Below, piece by piece: positions 1,190-61,156 of a stretch of 64,000 nt of DNA. Under the pieces are notes generated by a model, which was not told the origin of the DNA, searched no databases, and saw only the letters and a list, made by a program, of their open reading frames with translations. The stretch comes from Octopus vulgaris (Eukaryota). A program made the position numbers and the translations under genes. Each line of letters starts with the position of its first letter. The stretch's first letter is position 1. Location: positions 44,764,001 to 44,828,000 of the forward strand of contig OX597818.1 of the NCBI GenBank assembly GCA_951406725.2. Direction: 5' to 3'.

Positions 1190-1598
1190 GATCCAGGGAT
1201 CAAAGTGTAGTAAGAAAGTTAGCTTTAAGCAATCTGTAGTAAATATAAAAACAATTTCAGGGACAAAAGTGATTTACAGTGAGGGAAGGTTGTAGAATTT
1301 TTCATATCGAAGTATGATAAACTGAAAAAAGTTCTTTTTATATTTCACGGTAGGCGGCCAGGGTTGCCAGGCATTTGAATAAGAATACAAGAGTTAAGGA
1401 ATGCTTCTGATTGAATCTTGCATGTGTTAACATATACCTCCTTGCGACAATGTAAACTTTCATTTAATCAAGATATCCTTGATCTGAAGAGTAGCCTGCG
1501 GTATACACCTTGCTAAGATATTTACCACTTCTTAAGTTCTTCTCACTATGAAACATAAGTAGCACGGATCCTATCTACTCTATTCCTTAACTCTTGTA
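1190..1598 (+). mobile_element. Penelope-like pLTR remnant with degenerate hammerhead motif (1480-1564)
   Basis: CTGAAGA-GTAG...CTAT-GAAAC-ATAA-GTA; bounded by (TA)n and (TACA)n; 17-bp inverted repeat TACAAGAGTTAAGGAAT / ATTCCTTAACTCTTGTA. Confidence 0.5.
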
Positions 1599-3475: not shown

Positions 3476-3728
3476 TTATATTAAATTAGAGATAAAACCA
3501 CTGTTAGGCAAATCAAACAATGAAAAAAGCCAATACATAAAATTAATTAATTTATATTATTTTAAATATATATCAAAAGTATTAAAAGTTTAATAAAAGA
3601 TAATGAGTAAAACACTACGATCGTTTCATGGTTGTCCAATTCGTAATAATTCAAGTTATGGTTACAGTCAATCTTCAGGTAATTGAAATATTTATCTTAG
3701 CGAGGTTTAGCAGTGAACTAATGAACTA
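3476..3728 (-). mobile_element. Penelope-like pLTR remnant in a TA tract with degenerate hammerhead (3613-3681)
   Basis: Minus strand TAC-CTGAAGA...CCAT-GAAA-CGATCG-TA-GTG; (TA)n on both sides. Confidence 0.45.
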
Positions 3729-5227: not shown

Positions 5228-5794
5228 TTGGGTTGTCCGGAAAATTCGTGCCGATTATTAGTAGCTTACCTTTTGACTTATTTTAGAACATGGTTGAGTT
5301 CATAAAATAGGATTTGACTACACCTCCATTTAGAGCACAGTTTAAGCTATCTTTTCATGAAAGAAAGTTTATGTTCCTATAACCTGTGTTAATTCTGTAA
5401 CCCTTTAAAATGGAAGATAAGAAAGTTCATTTTCGGCACTTGATATTTTGAGAACCAGACAAAAATTGCTGAAGCTTGGCTGGGATGTGTTACCCCACTC
5501 TCCACATTCACCAGATATTGCTCCTTCAGATTTCCACCTATTCAGGTCTCTGCAGAATAGTCTTAACGGTAAAAATTTCAATTCCTTGGATGACGTAAAA
5601 AGATACCTTGATGAATTCTTTGCCATGAAATCACCTCAATTCTGGGAAGAGGGTATTTTCAAATTAAAGGAAAGATGGAGACACATTGTGCAACAAAATG
5701 GTTCATATTTGGTTGATGAAAAAATGTAATGGCAAGTATTTATTGTCCTTTTTCTTTCCTTTAAAAATCGGCACGAACTTTCCAGACAACCCAA
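5228..5794 (+). mobile_element. Internally deleted non-autonomous mariner element
   Basis: ~28-bp TIRs TTGGGTTGTCCGGAAA..., TA TSD; N-terminal MEDKKVHFRH joined to C-terminal HSPDIAPSDFHLFRSLQNSL (YSPDLAPSD motif). Confidence 0.95.
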
Positions 5795-7002: not shown

Positions 7003-7232
7003 GGGAAAAAAGTCAAAGTAGAAAATGCTAAAATAATTTTATAAAAACACTTCAGTACTGGTTTCAGTCAATGAGACTTTTTCAACTGTAACAATTAAAT
7101 AATTAAAATTAGAAAAATTAAAAGAAAAGTTTTTTTAAAAGAATATTTGTAGAGTGTTCGAATACAAGTGGCATTTTCCTTGTTTCTGCCTGTCTCTGTC
7201 TCTCTTGTTTACTCTTGTGGGTTCGAGGTCCC
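7003..7232 (-). mobile_element. Penelope-like pLTR fragment in (TA)n
   Basis: Same family as 31271-31695; contains a hammerhead at 7053-7088. Confidence 0.7.
7053..7088 (-). ncRNA. Minimal type I hammerhead ribozyme motif (U3:A8 variant)
   Basis: CAG-UUGAAAA-AGUC-ucauu-GACU-GAAAC-ca-GUA-CUG. Confidence 0.65.
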
Positions 7233-12598: not shown

Positions 12599-13049
12599 TT
12601 AATGATAATAATAATAATGAGATTATTGTATACAGTGCTCAGGTGCACCACAACATGTCAAAAGTGTGTGTAAAGCATATGTAGTAATGTACAAATGTCT
12701 GGGAAGTGAACAGTGTATGAGTCAGATACATGCTTGTGTGTGTATGAAGGGGAGAAATTCAGGTGTAGTGTTGGCGAATCTCAGGAAGCATGGATGTTTT
12801 GAAGGATGCAGTGCTCCAACAACTAACAACTGATGCCGGCAGTTCCATACTTCAGCAACTCTTAGGGTGAAAAAATGTTTCCGAAAGTCATGGGAGCTGT
12901 GCTGTTTTCTGACTTTGTAAACATGTCCACGGGTGTTAGACGGGTGGAGTTTGAAAAGGTGCTCAGAGTTATTGTTTGTAAGAGGGTTAATAATTTTATG
13001 GGTGTCTGCCAAGTCAGCTGCCAGACGTCGGAGTTTCAATGTATCCATG
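12599..13049 (-). mobile_element. CR1/L2-group LINE 3' fragment
   Basis: MDTLKLRRLAADLADTHKII...TRGHVYK...FFTLRVAEVWN; (ATT)n tail; same family as 53535-54123. Confidence 0.9.
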
Positions 13050-13262
13050 CAGTTACTGCTGTAACTCTCTATTCTTAATAATATTGACAATATTAGGTCG
13101 ACAGCTGTAGATGCGATGCTCATCAAATTGCATGAAAAATGTATGTATAACCAAAAACTGATTTTGCTATGAGATGCCTAAATGAAGTTTTAAATTGATA
13201 GGAGCATTTTAGCTGCATTTCAAACATTGCTGATATAATCAAGGGTCAACAATAAATAGCAT

Positions 13263-14754: not shown

Positions 14755-15330
14755 GGAGAAAATAATGGATACATCGAGCATCATGGCATCATAATTTTGA
14801 AATATTTATAAAAACCCATCAAAATCATGTTCATTTTTATGTTTTTTTCTATTTATTATTAGTGATTCTTAATATGTTTGCTAAAATTGTTGTTTCTTTT
14901 CAGATATCATTAGGAAAAAGTAGTTAAAATTCATTAAAATGACAGATCTATCAGACTTTCAAAGCGGTCAAATTGTTGGTGCTCGTATGGCAGGTGCTAG
15001 CATAACAAAAACAGCCAAAATGTTTGGTGTATCAAAAAGTACTGTCTCAAAAGTGATGACAGCCTTTGAGAAAGAGGGAAAAACTTCCTTGTTGAAAGAA
15101 AACTCCAGAAGAAAACCAAAACTTTCAGATAGGTACTGTCGGACTCTTTTGTGAATTGTTAGAAAGACAAAGCCGGATTTCACAGGAATGCTGCAATCAG
15201 AAAATCACTACTTCCAAAAACAAACATTGCAAAGCATTTAGAGTGGAGTAAAAACCTATAGAACTGGTCCCTAGAGAATTGGAAGAATGTTATTTTCTTG
15301 GGTGAGTCATCCTTTACCCTATTTCCAACC
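14747..15330 (+). mobile_element. Tc1-like transposon 5' fragment (pseudogenised transposase)
   Basis: CAGAGGTTGG left end; MTDLSDFQSGQIVGARMAGASITKTAKMFGVSKSTVSKV (paired-like HTH) and downstream WKNVIFLGESSF (WxxVxFSDES motif). Confidence 0.9.
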
Positions 15331-20715: not shown

Positions 20716-20735
20716 CAGCATATTATTCTTTTCCA

Positions 20736-21655
20736 CTCATTGGATGACAGTCAGATCTACTAGCTGTCACCCAATGGGTGGAAAAGAATAATATGCTGCT
20801 GAACAAGGACAAATTTGAGTTAATCCACTTCAGAAAAAAGGATACCCTGCGACTCATATACTTCCTTCTTTCAGGTGAAACTCTCATGGCATCCAACAAC
20901 ATCAGGGACTTGGGAGTAATTGTGGACAACAACATAAGCTGGACTGCTCATATAAACAGCAAAGTTGACATGGCCTGCAGAATATGTTCCTGGATTCTAA
21001 GAACTTTCCATTCAAGAGATATTCACACCATTATCTTTCTCTTCTCTACTTTTGCCCAACCTCACCTTGAATACTGTTGTCTATTGTGATCTCTCCACAT
21101 GAAACAAAGTATCATGAAAATTGAAGCATCTCAAATTTCGATTCTAAAAGAGAGAGATGGCATGACAGGCTTTGGCTATTGGGGTCAACTAGTAAAGCTC
21201 AAGCTTTAATCTCTCCAATGCCATAAGTGCTAGATCATCTGCATGCTGTGGAAAATATTCCATCAGAATTGCTCAAATGATATTGGCATTGCCTTTAAGA
21301 TACGCCCAAGACTTGGACCCCATGCTATCTATCTGCAACATAAATCATACTCACATCCCATAACAACAATAGGGCACAATTATTTCACCTCAATTGGCCC
21401 CGTTCTCTTTAGCATTACACCAAGACACATTAAGCAGAAACAGACCCCATAAAATTCAAGAAGTCTTTGGATAAATTCCTTCAAAAAATCCTGGATAAAC
21501 CTCCTACATCTAGATATGTCTCTGTAAACACTAACTCTCTCCTTGAGTGGGCTATGTTATCCAATTCCTGATTTGAATGACTTTGCCAGGTGGTGCTATT
21601 AAATTAGAAATGGCTTGGGTCAATAATGGCCAAATCCTATCAAAGTATCAAAGTA
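20736..21655 (+). mobile_element. Degenerate CR1-group LINE 3' part (RT C-terminus)
   Basis: WVEKNNMLLNKDKFELIHF...IRDLGVIVDNNISWTAHI...QPHLEYC; stops and frameshifts; (TATCAAAG)n tail. Confidence 0.9.
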
Positions 21656-24414: not shown

Positions 24415-24816
24415 AGTTAGTTAGTTAGTTAATTTGGCTCAAAAGCAAATAGCAAGGCCATGTAGGGGGACATGGAGTTAAGTACAGGGTGGTGTTCATG
24501 TAAAGAGTTCAGGCCACTTGAGGTCAAGGGAGGCTTTGAACGAAGCGGTCGTCGGCATCTTCACCATCTTGTCTGGCAGCTTGTTCCACGGATCTGCAAC
24601 CCGGACGGAGAAAGCTCCTCTCCTTCGATTGAGATGAAATCGTCGCAGGTAGAGCTTTTCGGAATGACCCCGCAGCCGACGCCCTGGAGCAGGAGTGAAG
24701 AACAGCTCTTTCGAGAGGTTACACTTTCCGCTTATGATGTTGTGGGCGAGAATGAGATCACCACGGCGGCGGCGTTTTTCAAGAGAATAAAGGTCGAGCG
24801 TCCTCAGCCTTTCTTC
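24415..24816 (-). mobile_element. Young CR1-type LINE 3' fragment with uninterrupted ORF2 end
   Basis: 24816-24496 reads EERLRTLDLYSLEKRRRRGDLILAHNIISG...LRGHSEKL...FSVRVADPWNKLP...* without breaks; (CTAA)n tail; CpG-rich. Confidence 0.92.
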
Positions 24817-25235
24817 AGCCTAAGGTTAAGAATGAATTGTAAAATGCCACTCTATAACAAGGGACACTGAACTTGACTAAGCTATAAACAAATCTCCAAG
24901 TAAAACTTCATGTGGTACAATTCGTTTGTGTTGGCACTAAGACCAGAGTGTAATTCAAAAGTTATGTTATTAAGAATCAGCAGATGAGACAGCATAGGGT
25001 ATAGCTGATCATATATAGAAAAACAGAGATCACCTCCCACTGTGGGATGAAGTTAAAATAATAGACAGATGATTGATTGACCAAAAATATCTGAGAAGGA
25101 TGTTGTTGGAAGAGAAAGGAATAAAGAGAGAAGAAGGTGTATGAACCCGCAGAGTAACAACATATTGTTTTAGCTGTAAGTCAGACTCATTTATAGAATA
25201 CAGTTCTATATTGGAGAGATGAGGAATTATGTACA

Positions 25236-25540
25236 TTATTTACATTATTTATATTTTACAGATATTTGTCCTCATCTTGTTTGTTGTTAACACAATGTTG
25301 TGGCTGATATACCCTCCAGCCTTCATCAGGTATCCTGGGGGAATTTTGAATCTGGGTTCTCATTCTTAAGGTATTTTTCGATGCTATAATAACATCGAAA
25401 AATACCTTATGAATAAGAACCCAGGTTTGAAATTTCCCCAAGACACCTAATGAAGGCAGGAGGGTATATCAGCCACAACATTGTGTTAACAACAAACAAG
25501 ATGAGGACAAATATCCGTCAAATGTAAATAATGTAAATAA
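25236..25540. mobile_element. Fold-back Penelope-like pLTR palindrome with a decayed hammerhead in each arm
   Basis: ~148-bp arms; minus strand of left arm CTGATGA-A-GGCTG-gagggtatat-CAGCC-acaac-att-GTGT. Confidence 0.75.
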
Positions 25541-25544
25541 GGAA

Positions 25545-25720
25545 ACTGTGTGTTGAAACAAATATTCCTGTGTCTGTTATATTTGGGTGAAACAAATATT
25601 GTTATATTTCATATTTTTGCCAATTACTTGGTCTTCACTTCAGCTTTATTATTATTCTTATTTTAAGGTCCCTTGACTGAAATCTTCTGTCACACATCCT
25701 GTGACCTCTTAAGTGACTCT
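25545..25720 (-). mobile_element. Decayed relative of the 32627-32916 pLTR family
   Basis: Shares GTGTGTTGAAACA.ATATT and a GGTCACAGGA(T)GTGTGAC stem. Confidence 0.45.
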
Positions 25721-25860
25721 TCGGAGAGTCTCCACAGTATGTATGATGAAAGATTTGAGACAAAGGGCACTAAAATAATATGAACAGAGCTGAAGTGAAG
25801 ACTAAGTATATAGTGTGTGTGGTTAATTAGCAAAAATATGACCATTGGCAAATATGACCA

Positions 25861-26253: not shown

Positions 26254-27720
26254 ATCCCCAAATATAACAGATGATTAATATATTCCCTTAATCTGAGTCT
26301 CAGAGCCATTCAGTGTTGTTCTTTGATGCTTTATGGGATTGAAACACTAGCAGTCTATGAAATGGATGTGCTATCAATCCATCACAAGCAATTCTGTTTC
26401 AGTGGGTGGAGTTGAGTTTAGCTATTTGTGCTAATGGATTATCTTTTTTTTTTACAGTTCAGTTGCAGATTATGTAGGTAAATCATACCATTCTGTCTTA
26501 CCTAATTGCTAAATTGCTTTGTTTGAAGCCCTATTAATAGGTAATGTAAAGCGAGGATGACAAAGGTAGGAAAAGATAAAGTGGAAGACAAGATTCCTCG
26601 TGGTATCTTGTTAACACATTTTTACTTTCTGAACACACACATGTGTGTGTTTGTGCATGTGTGTGTGTATGTGTGAAGATCAATGGAATTTTCTTTATAT
26701 ACATTGCAACTGGGTTGTTGTGTATATATGCATATGTATTTGTGCATATGCATTTGGCTAGTTGCTGTTTCCTAAGTACTTAATATAAATATTTAACACA
26801 AATGTTGTACATCTGTAAGGTATATAGTACAAAAATGTAGGTTATTTGACATTCCAGGTAAGGATGGCCATTAGTTAAATTATTTTCTTTATTTAACTTA
26901 ACTTTATCATATTACCTGAATCTAAATAATTTCTGAAATTTAAACATTTGCGACTACATCCTTTAGACACAGATTCACGTAGTCAAATTTACTGCTAGAC
27001 AAATAAATGGAAAGCTTTCAAGATATCTTTGGAATAGAATGTGTACCTATATTGGCTTACATAGCTGTAATTATTACACAAACTACTTTACAACAATGTG
27101 TATGGCAGAATCAACATATCAGGTGGTGTTCTAATTAGACACTTTCCTCTTCCTCTACTTCTCATCTCCTCTTCCACTCATCTCATCTCCCTATCCAACT
27201 TGGCATTTAGCCAAATAGTACCCCACTCTTCATATTCAAGAGATTTGCAATTGAAACCAGGCAGACAGTTCCTCTTCAAGACACACGTCCTAGTTGTTTA
27301 TCAGGGCACACAGTCAATATCTGATTTGTTTTCTCTTTTTCATTTTTTTTTGTTTTGTTTTTGCTAGTTCTTATTTAAAATCGCTCGAAAATGAAAGAAT
27401 AAAGATAGGTTTTCAGAAATATTTGTTTTGGAATGGAATATGGTTTTCTAATATTATAACAAAATTAGTCAAATTTGCCAACGTTTTATTCCTTGTTATA
27501 AGTAGTTTTTAACATCCTGGAATTTTAACAAATTGAATATATTATGCTGTATTTTTATATCTTCTCGTACATAATCTCTTCTTATATTTGTGTGGAGCAT
27601 GTGTATGTGTAGGGTGTGCACACATACGTGTGTATATATGCATATATATATAAACATATATCTGTGTACGTGTGTGTGTATATATATGTATACATGAATA
27701 TACATATATATATATATATA

Positions 27721-30153: not shown

Positions 30154-30399
30154 CAGTAGGGCAGAATTTTCTACCATTGGATGTTTGTTGTTGCCAACAC
30201 CCATTTATTTCCAAGAGGGGTAATAACAACCTCCTAGACATGTTTGCTTGGAGAACTGGAAACAAACGAAACCATACGATGAACGCTTTGTTTATAAACA
30301 TCATGCAATGCTTCAAGAAGCTTGAATATGCTTTCTTGATGGATTGCAAGCAAACAACACCATAAATGAAGTTATTGTTTACAATCAGTGAGCAAAATA

Positions 30400-30800
30400 C
30401 ATGTAGATGAAGGAAATATCACACAGACACAGGAGATCCAAGAAGACATGGGATGAAGTATTGATGTATGACCTCAGGATGTTGAACCTTTCAGGTGAGA
30501 TGACAAAGGAACTGAGATGCCTGGGGCCTTGCTGTACCCAAGAAGACCTGTATTCCACAAATGGAGTGTTAAGACTGCAAGAGTCCTGTGCTAGCACCAT
30601 GTAAAAAGCATTTGTGGTGGTGCCATGTAAAACTGCCTGTGCAGTTCCATGTAAAAGCACCCAGTAAAGTAGTTGGCATTAGGAAGGGTATTCAGCCATA
30701 GAAATCATGCCAAATCAGATTGGTGCAACTCTCCAGCCAGCTTTGGTCAAGCTGTCCAGCTCATGCCAGCATGGACAATAGACATTAAATGATGATGATA
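30400..30800 (+). mobile_element. RTE-type LINE 3' fragment (ORF2 end plus family A tail)
   Basis: RSKKTWDEVLMYDLRMLNLSGEMTK (GRPxxTW...DL motif) running into the family A tail. Confidence 0.75.
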
Positions 30801-30838
30801 ATATGTATGGGTGTGTATGCATATATATATATATATAT

Positions 30839-31238
30839 GTCACTTTTATTGGGTCATCACAATTGCTTAAGGTAAAAATGAATTCCTCGCTCTTTCGGAA
30901 ACATCAATCTTCTGTATTGACCGCTTTCCACCACTTTGATCTGTTTTTTGTATTGAATACGTATCGCCACCGTGGGCCACTGCATCGAACACTTTGAACA
31001 TATACTTCAAACTATATATCAACTATACATGAACTATATATCAACTATACATGAACTCTAAGATGTCTGACTCCGTTGTGTATTATAAATGAATTTCTTG
31101 TGTTTGACGGCATGAGCTGTCTTTTTTTATATATAACTTTTTTTGATAAGGTTCATTTCAAGAACTGAAACATGTTATAATGTATATATAAAAATTAAAA
31201 ATTGTATAATACAGCAGCATTTTCGAACTTCATTTTTT

Positions 31239-31242
<4 letters not shown>
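30839..31242 (+). mobile_element. Penelope-like pLTR remnant in (TA)n
   Basis: Contains a hammerhead at 31139-31180; 22-bp tandem duplication at ~31011-31056. Confidence 0.6.
31139..31180 (+). ncRNA. Minimal type I hammerhead motif (U3:A8 variant)
   Basis: UUUU-UUGAUAA-GGUUC-auuucaa-GAACU-GAAAC-au-GUU-AUAA; palindromic ACAUGU stem III; weak stem I. Confidence 0.55.
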
Positions 31243-31270
<28 letters not shown>

Positions 31271-31274
<4 letters not shown>

Positions 31275-31695
31275 AAACAAGTCAAAAATAGAAAATGCTA
31301 AGATAATTTTATAGTGAATCTTTCAGTACCGGTTTCGGTCATTTTGAGACCTTTTCAACTGTAACGATTAAATAATTAAATTTAGAAAAATTAGAAGAAA
31401 AGTTTTTTTAAAAGAATATTTCTGTAGTAGTGTTCAGATATAAGTAGCATTCTGCCTTTCTCTGACTCCCTTGTTTGCACGAACACACAAGTGCAAACAA
31501 GGGAGTCAGAGAAAGGCAGAATACTTATATCTGAACACTACTACAGAAATATTCTTTTAAAAAAACTTTTCTTCTAATTTTTCTAAATTTAATTATTTAA
31601 TCGTTACAGTGAAAGGTCTCAAAATGACCGAAACTGGTACTGAAAGATTCACTATAAAATTATCTTAGCATTTTCTATTTTTGACTTGTTTTTTC
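31271..31695. mobile_element. Near-perfect fold-back pLTR palindrome (~205-bp arms) in (TA)n
   Basis: 31271-31480 vs 31491-31695 with only a few small indels and substitutions. Confidence 0.9.
31324..31361 (-). ncRNA. Intact minimal type I hammerhead ribozyme motif (U3:A8 variant)
   Basis: CAG-UUGAAAA-GGUC-ucaaaau-GACC-GAAAC-cg-GUA-CUG; palindromic ACCGGU stem III. Confidence 0.75.
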
Positions 31696-31729
31696 ATATA
31701 TATCAACTCGTGTGTTCCTTTCCACCCTT

Positions 31730-31772
<43 letters not shown>

Positions 31773-31957
31773 TTCAGTAAAAATTTAGATTCAGATGAAT
31801 ATGGTACTTAAGTTGAGGCACCAGAATTTAGTATGGTATTATAGTATACAATTTAAAATAAGATGATTATAATCAAAATAAGCAACAAGGATATTTATAT
31901 ATATATATATATATATATATTGAATCCAAACTGAGGGTATGGAATGGGTGAAATGCA

Positions 31958-32041
31958 AGCTACATATGTTTCCTAGCTAGATGATCTTCTTTTGTAATAA
32001 TTACTCAATTAGGAGTACTCAACTTAGCTAACCATCAGGCC
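31958..32041 (-). ncRNA. Type I hammerhead motif (A9G) in another TA-adjacent repeat
   Basis: GGC-CUGAUGG-UUAGCUA...UAGCUAG-GAAAC-auau-GUA-GCU; palindromic ACAUAUGU. Confidence 0.6.
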
Positions 32042-32626
32042 AAGAATACCTTAATTAAATGAAAGTTACATTGTTGCCTGGAATTTCCAAGTTAACTCAC
32101 AGCAAATATGAATTGAAATGAAAAATGAAGCTGGAAGAATTGTTTGTGAAGCACATTAAATTTTTTGTTTGGTTTGTAAGATTTTTTTATGTGAATGTGT
32201 AGACAGGCTCAAAGCAGACCATGGAGTGAGAAGAGGAGGTCACTAAGTCATAGAAAAGATTGTGAAAAGGGATGTAAGAACCTTGACAAACAGATAACCA
32301 ATGAATTGTTTAACCAGTACATTGAATAAATGATTGATTAGTTAGTTGGTTAGATATTAACTAGCAATAACGAAATGCATGTGTTATTATTTGTGTAATG
32401 ACTCTCGCAAGACAAAACAGACATTAAATTGTTTCCTTGTAAATTAAATAAATTATTGAATAATTAGATATTTTTATTGGGGTTGATTTGCTTTTCCCCA
32501 GTTCAGTAAAAAGAGACAAGATAATTGCCAGATATAAAACTAAGTGCCAGTATCAATTTGTTCAACAAAACCCTTAAAGGTTGTGCCTCAGCTTGGCCAA
32601 AGTCCAATGAGTGAAACAAATAAAAA

Positions 32627-32916
32627 ATATTGCTGTATTTAGGAATGGTCATTTTGCCAGTTTAGCCAATAAAAACACACACACTATATATTTGGTGTTA
32701 CTTTGCTTCAGTGTTATTTATTTTTTACATTAATCTTAATCTTATTTCGGCCAGAGTTCTTTCATCACACTCCTGTGACCGCATCAGTGGCCGAAATAAG
32801 ATTAAGATTAACGTAAAAAATAAATATCACTGAAGCAAAGTAATACCAAATATATAGTGTGTGTGTGTTTTTATTGGCTAAACTGGCAAAATGACCATTC
32901 CTAAATACAACAATAT
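32627..32916. mobile_element. Fold-back palindrome (~127-bp arms) whose loop is a hammerhead-like core
   Basis: Minus strand loop GGCCA-CUGAUGC-GGUCAC-aggagu-GUGAU-GAAA-gaac-UC-UGGCC. Confidence 0.75.
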
Positions 32917-33513
32917 CTGTTTCAACACACGATTTCACATCAAAAATCTTGCAAAACAAATATATAAACGTAAAAAATAAAAAATAAATAGCTTGTCAAA
33001 GGTAATAGTTTCAAATTAGCAAAGCTGAAAACAGGATTTGAAACCCTAAAATAGTGGCTATTACATCCCAGCTGAAGTTGAAAACTTATTAAATTTTATA
33101 GCTCATTTAAGAAAATACATACAATTGTATGTGTTATACATTAGGATAATAATGATAGCAATGATAGTGATAATGTTTAGCATTTATCTTTCAGTTGTTG
33201 CTATCACCATCATTGGCATCATTAATGCCATTGTACTTTTGTATCTTTGTTTCACATTTTTTTTTTTACAACTGTTCTTTACAATCAGGTGTACACTAGA
33301 TTCATCTGCTTGGCTGCATTTGGAACCAATCCAAATACTAAAGGGTACCCGTAGAGCATATACGATAGTCATGTTTGGTGTGCCATTTAAAGTTTCAGAC
33401 ATGTTCCTGTGAATATTTTATTATTTATAAATATTAACTTTGCTTATGTTATACACAATTTGAAGATACATGCTAACATATTCTAATGTGTTTTATATGT
33501 GACTGTATCTGTG

Positions 33514-37845: not shown

Positions 37846-38146
37846 GACAAGAACAAACGGTAAACACGTCTCTTATAAAGCTGCTTCTCAGAATTATTAG
37901 TATTTTTAAGGTCACAATATATATATCATTGGTACTTCATATTAAACAATACTGATCAGGACAAGAATATAGGATCACTAAATTCTTCTTTTGATTAGTG
38001 TTGTTTAATATGAAGTACTAATAATTTATTGGTACTCTTTAACTCTTTAACCAGTTTCAGCTCAAAAGCTGTGGTCATGCTGGGGCACCAATACCAATAA
38101 TTCTAGGAAACAGCTTTATAAGAGTGCTGTTTGCAGTTCATTCTGT

Positions 38147-45194: not shown

Positions 45195-45576
45195 TCTCTC
45201 TATATATAAACGGCAAAATGTCTGTCTGTATGTGTGTGTGTGTGTGTGCATCCTTTATACAAATCCACAATTTTTCAGTTAGAGGGCTTGCACTTTCTAT
45301 GGTCATTCAAAACCGTCCACGGGTGTTCATGCACATCTTTACATTTCCCCAGTCACCCAGCAAGTCCATTAAAAAATCAATAGAAGTGACTCTTTTGTGA
45401 ATTTTCTATCCAAAACCCAATCAAAATGCCCGAAACTATATACGCCAATTGAATGCCAGCTAGCTGTATGTGATTGGTCGGAGATTTGGACAGTACTTGT
45501 GTGTATGTGCACATGCACACAGCTGTATATGCATGCACTAGCACTATGACCCAGCATTGCTGGGTCATAGTGCTAG
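45195..45576 (+). mobile_element. Non-autonomous Helitron
   Basis: A|TCTCTCTATATATAAA 5' end; GACCCAGC/GCTGGGTC subterminal hairpin; CTAG|T 3' end; no TSD. Confidence 0.8.
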
Positions 45577-46342
45577 TACTACATAAATCTGATTAAGTAA
45601 TATAAGTAGACAAAATATAATTAAATGATGCAAAACAATAGGTTGATATATAAACTGAAATGAAGCAAGTTTTAGGAAAATTTAGCGAAATTTATTTGCA
45701 ATTTTATAAACAATATCTTTAGCCTATTAAAAAGTAGAATGATGGAATAAAATATCCCTCCCTATAAACTTTGTATATTCTATGAGATCATTTGTTCTTT
45801 TATCGTTTTTCCAATAATGGCTTAAGGGTGTGATATAGTAAACCAGTGCATTAAATGGGTGATAAAAGTCATGTACAAAAGAAGTAAAGTTATTGTGTTG
45901 ATACCCTGAGATACCCATGTATGAACGGTTTTCTACATGAAGAAATTGAATAATGAATGGTTTCTCTGAAGAAAATTAAGCTTGTATAACGAGCCGATAT
46001 CTGATCAATGAATAATGTGCAGGCTACACATACATATAAGTGACTGGGAGCCCATTTGCTTAGTGAGCTGAAATTTGGACAACAAACCAGGAGTAGTGGA
46101 CTATGCATGTATGCAAGCGCTGGGAGAACCTATATGAATAGTATGTTAAATGAACAAATTGTTTGGTGAACAGTTTTACTGAAGAAAATTAGATTCAGCC
46201 GATGAGCTGAAATTTCAATAACAATCACAAGAAGACTATGGAGAGGTATATGTGGCTAAGAAAGTATGTAGAAGCAATTTGTTGAAAACCATCTAGACAA
46301 CTCATATAGCTTGTAAATTTACATATTTTATATATGTATACT

Positions 46343-46723
46343 TAGGCACAGGAGTGGCTGTGTGGTAAGTAGCTTGCTTACCAACCACATGGTTCTGGGT
46401 TCAGTTCCACTGCGTGACACCTTGGGCAAGTATCTTTTACTATAGCCTCGGGCTGACCAAAGCCTTGTGAGTGGATTTGGTAGGCGGAAACTGAAAGAAG
46501 CCTGTCGTATATATGTATGTGTGTCTGTGTTTGTCCCACCAACATCGCTTGACAACCGATGGTGCTGTGTTTATGCCTCCGCAATTTAGCGGTTCGGCAA
46601 GAGACCCGTAGAATAAGTACTAGGCTTACAAAGAATAAGTCCTGAGGTCGATTTGCTTGACTGAAGGCGGTACTCCAGCATGGCCACAGTCAAATGACTG
46701 AAACTAGTAAAAGAGTAAAAGAG
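46343..46723 (+). mobile_element. SINE family B
   Basis: Full-length copy. Confidence 0.9.
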
Positions 46724-53084: not shown

Positions 53085-53534
53085 TGTTAATACTAGCAAT
53101 TACAATAAAACCCAGACCAACAAGGAATATTACTTCTTTTCCCGACACATAACTAAATGTATAGATTGAAGAACAAATCTACTTATAAAGCAATCTTCAT
53201 TAACTTTCTTTAAAGGAAGTCAGGTATATGAAATTCTAAAGCTAATGGTATTTAGTGTTAAATGATCAGAGAAATGAACAGAGAAAGTTTCTCCATTGGA
53301 ACTCCAATTTACTAATTACTAATTATAATTTCTTGCATTTAGTAGACAATTGATTATAAAAATTGAAACATTGCTAAAAAAAAAACCAGATGGAATATTT
53401 CCTTGAGTCTTTTGGTTTCAGTAAGAAAACTTAAAGAATGACAACTACGTTTAATCAATATAATAGGGTATCACAGAAAAATATTTGGTAATATTTAAAA
53501 AGAGATTCTGTAAGTTTTGGCACAAGGCCAGCAA

Positions 53535-54123
53535 TCACCAGTCTGGAACCCCTATCTTGCCCAGGCTATTAATCATCAGGAAACCGTTCAGCGATGTGCA
53601 ACCAAGAGAATACCCTCCATTAGACATTTGCCATATTCTGAACGCCTTACTTCCCTGGGTATAGATACATTGAAACTCCGACATCTGGCAGCTGACTTGG
53701 CAGACACCCATAAAATTATTAACCATCTTACAAACAATAACTCTGAGCACCTTTTCAAACTCCATCTGTCTAACACCCGTGGACATGTTTACAAAGTCAG
53801 AAAACAGCACAGCTCCCATGACTTTCGGAAACATTTTTTCACACTAAGAGTTGCTGAAGCATGGAACAAACTGCCGGCATCAGTTGTTAGTTGTCGGAGC
53901 ACTGCATCCTTCAAAACTTCCATGCTTCCTGAGATTCGCCAACACTACACCTGATTTTCGCCCCTCCATACACACACAAGCATGTATCTGACTCATACAC
54001 TGTTCACTTCCCAGACATTTGTACATTACTGCATATGCTTTATACGCACTTTTGACAAGTTGTGGTGCACCTGAGCACTGTATACAATAATTTCATTATC
54101 ATTATTATTATTATTATTATATT
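53535..54123 (+). mobile_element. CR1/L2-group LINE 3' fragment
   Basis: SPVWNPY...ETVQRCATKRIP...YSERL...TRGH...FFTLRVAEAWNKLP, stop at 53954; (ATT)n tail. Confidence 0.93.
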
Positions 54124-54970: not shown

Positions 54971-55676
54971 ACGAATATTAAAACAATACAAAGTTTACTG
55001 TTTTATTATGTGTAATACCTCCATTCTGAGAGTTTGTATTCCATCCACATTATTTGTGTATCAACTAAAAGCAAGTAAAAGTGACATTGAAACTTTTTAC
55101 CATGATGCTCATACATACTTTGAAGCACTGAAGTCTGCTAATGCAATAAAAGAACAGGAAACATGGTGCCTATAGAATTACTTTCTCTTACATGAATCAC
55201 ATCATTTATCTCAGTAAGGAATCATGGTTGAAAGAATCATTGGCACAAATAATATATATGTGTGTGTGTGTGTATGTGTGAAGATTCTTAGGAATTGTAT
55301 TCCATCCACATTTTAGTTTATCATGGCTTACAGCATGTAAGGGTGAGTAAATGCTACACTCCATAAGGCTCATACATACTTTGAAGCACTGAAGTCTGCT
55401 AATGCAATAAAATTAACTTAAGAGAACATGAGTTCCTTAGAACTCTCTTTCTCAAGTGTTCCTAAACTCACATCTCTCTCTCTCTCTCTACACTTCTCAC
55501 ATCTCCCTCTCATTCTCATTCTCTCTTACTGAACTCATTAGAAATAGTAGCTAAAAAACTTTTAAAAACTATTTCTAATACTTATTAGAAATAGTTTTAA
55601 AAAAGTTTTTTTAGCTACTATTTAGCCAAAGAAAAGTGGATAAGGGTGAGTAATATGCTCACCTCTATCATGCATG

Positions 55677-57897: not shown

Positions 57898-58027
57898 ATA
57901 AATGGAGTTTAACACAGGTATAATTCAAATACTTTTACTTCCGACACATGTTTCGAAGATATCACTGATATCTTCCAAACATGTGTCAGAAGTAAAAAAT
58001 ATTTGAATTATACCTGCATTAAACTCC

Positions 58028-58033
<6 letters not shown>
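57898..58033. mobile_element. Fold-back palindrome (~67-bp arms) containing the 3' half of a hammerhead motif
   Basis: Centre GAAGATATCA-C-TGATATCTTC; minus strand TTC-GAAAC-ATGT-GTC-GGAAG; abuts (TA)n. Confidence 0.7.
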
Positions 58034-58229: not shown

Positions 58230-58790
58230 TATAACATAAACAATTACTTAAAAAACCAATGTACCAGTGAATAACCAGGGAATATTGGATGCTTTACAGA
58301 AAGAAAACAGACCAACAAACACAGCTATATATACCTACACCCCTGGAAACAAATTATACATTTGATACTGCTACACTTCCCACACACCCCTTCCCCACAA
58401 GAACACCACATTAATAATACCCACTTTCTGTACTTCAAGATAAACCTTCCTGGTTTTCACAGCATACCCAACCAAGGGACATAACTCCTAAACTAATCCT
58501 CTGACCCCTTTTTCATTTCACCACCTTTTTCACAGAAGTCACTGATCAGTTGTGCTAATCCAACTCTAATAATAGAGAGCAGTCAACATATTTCCTTCCA
58601 TCTCGACTAACTCTGATGAGTGTAAAGTCATATAATCAGTTAGTTACCTAACACTCCATTATATTCTTTACAGGAAACCGATTGGTAAGACCAGCCCTGA
58701 TGGATATTTAATACTATACATTTCATATAATATACCTACTGTACTGACAGTTATACAAGTGCATCTTTTCCCTGATGACTCATGCATGTA
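58230..58790 (+). mobile_element. Penelope-like 3' remnant (decayed endonuclease end plus pLTR)
   Basis: TFLVFTAYPTKGHN (~58444-58485) loosely resembles a PLE GIY-YIG C-terminus; followed by a hammerhead; microsatellites on both sides. Confidence 0.5.
58611..58689 (+). ncRNA. Type I hammerhead ribozyme motif, canonical core
   Basis: CU-CUGAUGA-g-UGUAAAG...CUUUACA-g-GAAAC-cgauug-GUA-AG. Confidence 0.65.
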
Positions 58791-60495: not shown

Positions 60496-60640
60496 GGGAA
60501 ATATTCCTGCTGGTATTTCATTAACAACTTTGCCCAGACTTGTGCCTCGGGTAGGGGAGTGGGGTGGCTTTCTAGATGCAGTCCCATGATCATTCATGAC
60601 TGAAGGGGATCTTTATCCTTTACTTCTTACTCTTTTAATA

Positions 60641-61156
60641 TTGGGTTGTCCGGAAAGTTTGTGCCAATTTTTAAAGGAAAGAAAAATGTCAACAGATATG
60701 AACCATTTTGTTGCATCATGTGTCTCCATTTTTCCTTTAACTTGAAAATACCCTCTTCCCAGAATTGAGGTGGTTTCGTGGCAAAGAATTCATCAAGGTA
60801 TCTTTTTACGTCATCCAAGGAATTGAAATTTCTCCCGTTAAGACTATTCTGCAAAGACCTAAATAAGTGGAAATCCAAAGGAGCAATATCTGGTGAATAT
60901 GCAGCCGAGCTACAGCAATTTTTGTCTGGTTCTCAAAGCATCAAGTGCCGAAAATGAACTTTCTCATCTTCCATTTTAAAGGGTTACAAAATTAACACAG
61001 GTTATAAGAACATAAACCTTCTTCCACGGAAAGATAGCTTAAACTGTGCTCTAAATGGAGGTGTAGTCAAATCCTATTTTATGGACTCAACCATGTTCTA
61101 AAATAAGTCAAAAGGTAAGCTACTATAAATCGGCACAAACTTTCCGGACAACCCAA
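60641..61156 (-). mobile_element. Internally deleted non-autonomous mariner (same family as 5228-5794)
   Basis: Same TIRs, TA TSD and deletion junction. Confidence 0.95.

Follow-up and report, generated by a model that had tools for sequence, protein, structure and literature searches.

Minimal type I hammerhead ribozymes are known from the pLTRs of metazoan Penelope-like elements (PLEs), where they occur by the thousands per genome and in many families (Cervera and De la Pena, 2014; PMC4209133). As described there, these ribozymes have a short helix I, a palindromic helix III, U3-A8 covariation and an unpaired base before helix II, and are mostly found as single copies, some of them on opposite strands 100-700 bp apart. 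Inverted and 5'-truncated copies, tails and a bias towards (TA)n are standard PLE anatomy (Craig et al., 2021; PMC8557442). The same study proposes a microsatellite bias for Neptune elements and lists, from Octopus bimaculoides, the element Hydra-1_Obim, which prefers (TA)n and carries a hammerhead at position 2403 of 2507 (files S1, S2), as well as two Octopus Naiads, elements of a group without canonical hammerheads. The giant squid genome has been credited with 235 hammerhead loci (PMC6962438), and 31 recently active PLE families have been reported from Octopus vulgaris, in a paper whose main text leaves hammerheads unmentioned (Bonar et al., 2026; PMC13282606). For an anole PLE studied in vitro, insertion proceeded without a need for cleavage, and no RNA reads ended at the cleavage site (Frangieh et al., 2024; PMC11167929).

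The sequence analyzed here (hereafter “the window”) is a 64-kb stretch of the O. vulgaris genome (contig OX597818.1, positions 44,764,001 to 44,828,000), which is AT-rich (28-44% GC per 2 kb) and contains plentiful interspersed repeats, 91 microsatellite rows and 56 runs of (TA)5+. Inspection of the sequence and of its tandem repeats between 30821 and ~32130 revealed four inserts alternating with (TA)n runs. The stack begins at its left edge with (TA)9 (30821-30838), followed by insert 1, a ~400-bp copy of family C (30839-31242, plus strand) whose 3' end abuts (TA)14 (31243-31270) and which contains a 22-nt tandem duplication at 31010-31057 (region 30992-31057). Insert 2 (31271-31700), on the other side of this (TA)14, is a fold-back of family A with arms 94% identical: the left arm (31271-31478, minus strand) has its 3' end outward, facing (TA)14, and the right arm (31479-31700, plus strand) has a few extra bases at the 5' side. 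A ~30-nt piece (31705-31737), the size of which would fit a PLE “tail” as described in PMC8557442, lies between this right arm and (TA)16 (31738-31769). Next come insert 3 (31770-31890), which has no hammerhead motif and a sole, weak match of 44 nt elsewhere in the window (26895-26937), then (TA)12 (31896-31919), and lastly insert 4, a minus-strand copy of family B with its 3' end abutting (TA)12 and an approximate far end (31920-~32130). Pairwise scores between the inserts fell inside the shuffled range in 6/6 comparisons, and the four are therefore mutually unrelated, in agreement with the first-pass annotation of this region (four unrelated inserts in 1.3 kb, separated by (TA)n).

That annotation had also assigned type I hammerheads to three of the inserts, and a motif is indeed present in each. 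The left arm of insert 2 carries a complete one (31327-31358, minus strand), with a U3-A8 core, a helix I of 3 bp, a helix II of 4 bp, the palindrome CCGG and a GUA cleavage site. This is the only match to a strict descriptor in the 64 kb, and the only site where the defining features of the type (core C3-A9, G12-A14, A15.1-U16.1, H17, three helices) are found in full, with the U3-A8 variant, the other sites showing part of them. Within a 301-nt stretch, the Rfam model HH9 aligns to it with a score of 22.9 bits (E 0.0016), below the cut-off of 52 bits. Its counterpart in the right arm (31610-31639) has a 2-nt core deletion. The motif of insert 1 (31143-31176, plus strand) combines a U3-A8 core with a helix II of 5 bp, the palindrome CATG and a GUU site, and has just 1 bp of helix I beside the core, with a 12-bp distal helix farther out. 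A contig from public run X3 (depth 57.7) spans 30972-31230 with one difference, located in loop 2, so that this shape is likely the normal state of family C and not the decay of one copy. In insert 4 (31961-32038, minus strand), A9 is changed to G, helix II is 7 bp with a long loop and the palindrome is CATATG; searched alone against Rfam, this insert gave no hammerhead match. The motifs sit 41-67 nt from the TA-joined ends of the motif-bearing inserts. Across the window, one motif is flawless and most are decayed.

Seven further sites had been listed in the first-pass annotation as motifs or half-motifs, and all of them hold one or the other, those at 1484 and 3616 as judged by inspection only. 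Sequence comparison sorts the motif-bearing elements into eight groups, again as estimated earlier: families A (31327, 31610, 7056), B (31961, 1484), C (31143), D (32754, 25679), E (25294, 25447), F (58613), G (3616) and H (57943-57987). Family A recurs as a single-arm copy between two (TA)n runs (7004-7230, minus strand), which is 82% identical to the copy at 31327 over 212 nt, and whose hammerhead (7056-7085, minus strand) differs from that at 31327 in one pair of helix II, in which both bases are changed (G-C to A-U). The decayed hammerhead at 1484-1561 (plus strand) belongs to an element ending at (TACA)n/(TA)n and akin to insert 4 (81% over 52 nt); 18 nt from the 3' end of this element recur in inverted orientation at ~1383-1400, as a very short inverted arm. 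Family G is represented by a decayed hammerhead with the palindrome CGATCG (3616-3678, minus strand), and family E by a fold-back (25236-25540) with decayed minimal hammerheads at 25294-25329 (minus strand) and 25447-25482 (plus strand), the former with two core changes; helix III is 2 nt in this family. Family D comprises the fold-back at 32622-32921, with a hammerhead at 32754-32787 (minus strand) in which A9 is changed to C, and an old fold-back at 25625-25808 with a decayed core (25679-25713, minus strand), which is absent from the first-pass list and related to the former by scores of 62 and 68 vs. shuffled maxima of 48 and 52. The fold-back of family H (57899-58032) has in each arm only the 3' half of a hammerhead (57943-57987), and its right end abuts (TA)16. 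Finally, family F has a canonical core, a long helix II and a near-palindromic helix III of 8 nt (58613-58687, plus strand). The sites at 3616, 58613, 32754 and 25294 are decayed full motifs.

The strict type I descriptor was scanned over the 64 kb against a background of 60 local dinucleotide shuffles, and its single match compares with 0.00 in the shuffles. Relaxed versions gave 2 matches vs. a shuffle mean of 0.05 (descriptor A), 4 vs. 0.40 with a shuffle maximum of 2 (descriptor B, moderately relaxed), 1 vs. 0.08 (descriptor E) and 0 vs. 0 (descriptor D), and two looser ones were not above background (descriptor C, 3 vs. 0.85, maximum 6; descriptor F, 3 vs. 0.88, maximum 3; not significant). 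These figures are to be read with the fact that the descriptors were relaxed after the sites had been seen, and that 1484 and 3616 pass none of them. In the shuffle comparison proposed by the first-pass annotation, motif frequency within the window thus exceeds background for the strict and moderate descriptors and not for the two loose ones. A search of the whole window against Rfam showed no hammerhead among the 150 matches listed out of 199, and folding z-scores of monomers were unremarkable for five motifs (-1.42 to 0.54). The palindromic helix III segments self-pair in 6/8 motifs (-3.2 to -12.4 kcal/mol), which is what a dimer model needs. Counts of half-motifs were rejected as evidence: the end of a common repeat, a 4-bp hairpin followed by GAAA, found at 46690-46710 and in five other places, mimics the 3' half of a hammerhead.

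The motifs have a consistent polarity towards (TA)n. Read in the ribozyme sense, 5/6 descriptor matches have (TA)5+ at 42-110 nt downstream of their cleavage site, and the distance to (TA)5+ on the upstream side is larger for these five (178-4161 nt). A (TA)5+ run is found within 110 nt on the 3' side of 5/6 matches vs. 8.3% of random positions (P 2e-5), so that the enrichment test suggested earlier was positive within the window, and counting independent clusters, with the stack as one cluster, gives 3/4 (P 0.002). By family, six of the eight end on their 3' side on or near (TA)n, and two, D and E, are without TA flanks: the nearest (TA)n is 2159-4806 nt away from the element at 25290 (family E) and 835 nt away from the one at 32749 (family D). 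The earlier claim that TA microsatellites are landing sites agrees with the polarity of five of the six descriptor matches and does not extend to families D and E. Target-site duplications are unreadable inside (TA)n, and the contig joints listed include no empty site.

Eleven inverted repeats with near-zero spacers were detected in the window, five of them with motif material. In all five, the 3' ends point outward, and 5' truncation with an adjacent inverted copy, a PLE trait, is seen in insert 2 and in the four other motif-bearing fold-backs. The centre of the fold-back lies in or beside the ribozyme in 3/5 cases: the 34-nt spacer of 32622-32921 coincides exactly with the part of the ribozyme between C3 and the cleavage site, the centre of 25625-25808 is ~4 nt from the core, and that of 57899-58032 is 11 nt before GAAA. 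In the other two, it is farther away (127 nt in insert 2, 59 nt in family E). The inversion at 32622-32921 may have been primed by helix I. Since n = 5, and since a fold-back itself makes a hairpin, we take the hammerhead as fold-back point as a lead only. Among the fold-backs without a motif, the one at 910-1182 spans 270 bp with TA-rich flanks and no recognizable hammerhead, and may represent one end of a family that lacks hammerheads. Shorter ones lie at 55542-55623, 37928-38022, 20716-20798 (at the edge of a LINE fragment) and 45537-45577.

Contigs of four public runs (24 listed) were placed on 30200-31490 at 80% likeness, and their summed depth, which is not a copy number, rises steeply from the flank into the inserts. 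In run X1 it is 63-541 in five bins of the flank (30200-30419), 8e4-4e5 in 7/8 bins across insert 1 (the bin of the 22-nt duplication has 2,696) and 3e5-1e6 in four bins of family A, and the pattern is the same in X6 and X8, which are labeled as two other organisms. Together, these depths indicate that inserts 1 and 2 are abundant repeats. One 129-nt contig of X8 is identical to 30987-31115 and has a depth of 2366 (six other listed X8 contigs, 4.5-9.9), and family C is, judging from this identity, likely young. At the 22-nt duplication, contig depth falls ~40-fold in X1 and not in X6 or X8, suggesting that subfamilies of insert 1 differ between the labeled organisms. Nearly all contig joints and loose ends listed for 30200-31490 stem from the flanking high-copy repeat, and none of those listed leads upstream into an ORF.

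To look for coding sequence of a PLE, Pfam was searched with 15 read-through frames beside the motifs and with 250 stop-free frames of the window, that is, those of at least 58 aa (251, one of low complexity dropped) from 485 of at least 45 aa, with the frames of insert 1 excluded. Neither search yielded a reverse transcriptase (RT) or GIY-YIG domain, consistent with the earlier statement that the window has no intact PLE ORF, and as would be expected of truncated copies. The scan of 250 frames is insensitive, as it missed a transposase piece at 5421 and a LINE piece at 53514. Decayed mariner/Tc1-like transposase pieces are discernible by eye at 5421-5726, 60630-60932 and 14924-15151, the last with a Pfam helix-turn-helix match, and C-terminal fragments of LINE reverse transcriptases at 12725-13177, 20748-21086, 24499-24819 and 53514-53951, of which the last matches a predicted O. 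vulgaris protein with 96% identity across 80% of the fragment; its other named matches are from O. vulgaris and O. sinensis, which places the host in Octopus. A phmmer search of a 32-residue frame upstream of family A against 1.84 billion proteins returned no PLE protein, and its two matches, to repetitive and unnamed proteins, were discarded as spurious. By eye, the frame upstream of family A resembles the end of an endonuclease, as a lead only. One plus-strand frame of insert 1 resembles, also by eye and as a lead only, the latter half of an endonuclease sequence given in PMC8557442. DNA patterns had 0 matches in metagenome contigs, viral contigs and prokaryote genomes.

Since no family is tied to an RT or GIY-YIG ORF, we infer PLE membership from anatomy. 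One trait of EN+ PLEs, the type I hammerhead close to the 3' terminus of the pLTR, is present, and the PLE assignment of the first-pass annotation stands as far as this anatomy goes (type I, palindromic helix III, U3-A8, (TA)n at the 3' end, inverted 5'-truncated arms) and falls short of a link to an RT/GIY-YIG ORF. On these grounds, we consider that the inserts are probably 5'-truncated pLTR ends of several hammerhead-bearing PLE families, or of non-autonomous derivatives moved by them, which target (TA)n. A PLE GIY-YIG endonuclease would nick (TA)n, and the RT would begin to copy element RNA close to the 3' end of that RNA, in most cases halting after 100-400 nt, with the new strand sometimes folding back at a short hairpin to give a head-to-head inverted arm. 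With (TA)n remaining on both sides, each insertion would regenerate its target, so that later elements of other families could pile up. Cleavage by the hammerheads is predicted for dimers only, through pairing of their palindromic helix III segments, within tandem precursor RNAs of the source elements, and most copies in the window are likely dead relics. It is tempting to go further and to see in the hammerhead helices the fold-back points that make inverted pLTRs, a role apart from cleavage, and in family C a non-coding, monomeric U3-A8 hammerhead element, young and abundant, that makes use of (TA)n-targeting PLE enzymes in octopus, a combination that we regard as doubtful.

Another reading is that some families, chiefly C and A, are in themselves non-LTR retrozymes, i.e., non-coding elements of 200-400 nt that would replicate through self-cleaved circular RNA and be inserted by PLE proteins, the window holding monomers. 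Insert 1 (~400 bp) has stops in all six frames, yet near-identical and abundant copies, helix II of the family A motif measures 4 bp and the motif's loop is HH9-like, and described retrozymes are 220-400 nt long, AT-rich, often monomeric and pLTR-derived (PMC7229834; preprint 10.64898/2026.07.22.740005). However, the 64-kb window has no head-to-tail hammerhead unit, helix I is 1-3 bp vs. the canonical 6, and the copies are inverted and differ in their 5' truncation points, which makes this reading unlikely; it also overlaps with the truncated-pLTR interpretation, retrozymes being themselves derived from pLTRs. We give far less credence to the inserts being 3' ends of some other microsatellite-targeting retroelement (Dong/R4 LINEs, SINEs) that carries or has captured hammerheads. 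Dong elements target microsatellites, and the common repeat end noted above (6 copies) does resemble the 3' half of the family A motif, but this repeat end is without the CUGANGA half. Dong-R4 and SINE families also abound in O. vulgaris and have recently been active there (PMC13282606, table 1), but it is for PLEs that type I hammerheads near the 3' end with a palindromic helix III, and head-to-head inverted arms, have been described. Lastly, several near-perfect inverted repeats of 130-430 bp, the chance matches of the loose descriptors and the weak folding z-scores could be taken for TA-preferring MITE-like or foldback DNA elements with motifs arising by chance in AT-rich DNA, an explanation that is very improbable and largely refuted by the excess of strict and moderate descriptor matches, by the one motif polarity towards (TA)n, by an architecture common to eight unrelated families, by arms of unequal length at the centre, and by the single arm of family A at 7004-7230, which with its paired helix II change points to truncated retro-copies that have an inverted partner, and away from a MITE.

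With eight families in 64 kb, the window shows hammerhead-bearing repeat ends in octopus to be dense and varied, and, if they are truncated PLE ends, (TA)n tracts would act as self-renewing landing pads. Recognizing such ends should help repeat annotation, because pieces this short are readily classed as MITE, SINE or unknown and escape the Rfam cut-offs. Octopus would also offer a large natural set for asking whether cleavage by PLE hammerheads takes place in vivo, and by what route inverted pLTRs arise. Of the diverse, high-copy and poorly annotated system proposed in the first-pass annotation, the diversity is seen in the eight families, and abundance is indicated by the contigs for families A and C; the description as poorly known is weak, as PMC8557442 lists a (TA)n-targeting hammerhead PLE from Octopus and PMC13282606 31 active families, and the repeat library of Bonar et al. 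(2026) may already include those described here. A literature search, with Repbase, Dfam and subscription journals outside its scope, found no description of these eight families or of fold-back at hammerhead helices. Six motifs of the window were not found in the supplement text of PMC8557442, whose long sequence runs are incomplete, and the hammerhead motif of Hydra-1_Obim was not found in the window at 2 mismatches.

How, then, do these elements compare with those already described? The motifs resemble the set of PMC4209133 in being of type I, with a short helix I, a palindromic helix III, U3-A8 and an unpaired base before helix II, and in being mostly solitary with some opposite-strand pairs. 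They differ in that the two core halves are 44-59 nt apart in families B, F and G, a longer spacing than in the forms with a 6-8 bp helix II described there, and in that no copy in the window is tied to an ORF. Hydra-1_Obim, a PLE of the Hydra clade, shares with them the genus Octopus, the preference for (TA)n and a hammerhead close to the 3' end, but they differ from it in sequence; moreover, the Hydra motifs listed mostly have an odd central base in helix III, whereas those of the window are mostly even palindromes. Neptune and Penelope/Poseidon PLEs share with the window families the pLTR hammerhead and the inverted truncated copies, and family E, which is not TA-flanked and has a 2-nt helix III, fits the minimal type. 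In the Naiad clade, by contrast, canonical hammerheads are missing. Non-LTR retrozymes (PMC7229834; Li et al., 2026, preprint) are likewise short, AT-rich, non-coding, of type I and PLE-linked, but the elements of the window lack their tandem units, have a short helix I, and occur as truncated and inverted copies. Every ingredient is already in print, including a (TA)n-targeting hammerhead element from Octopus, and the window families point to no new kind of system.
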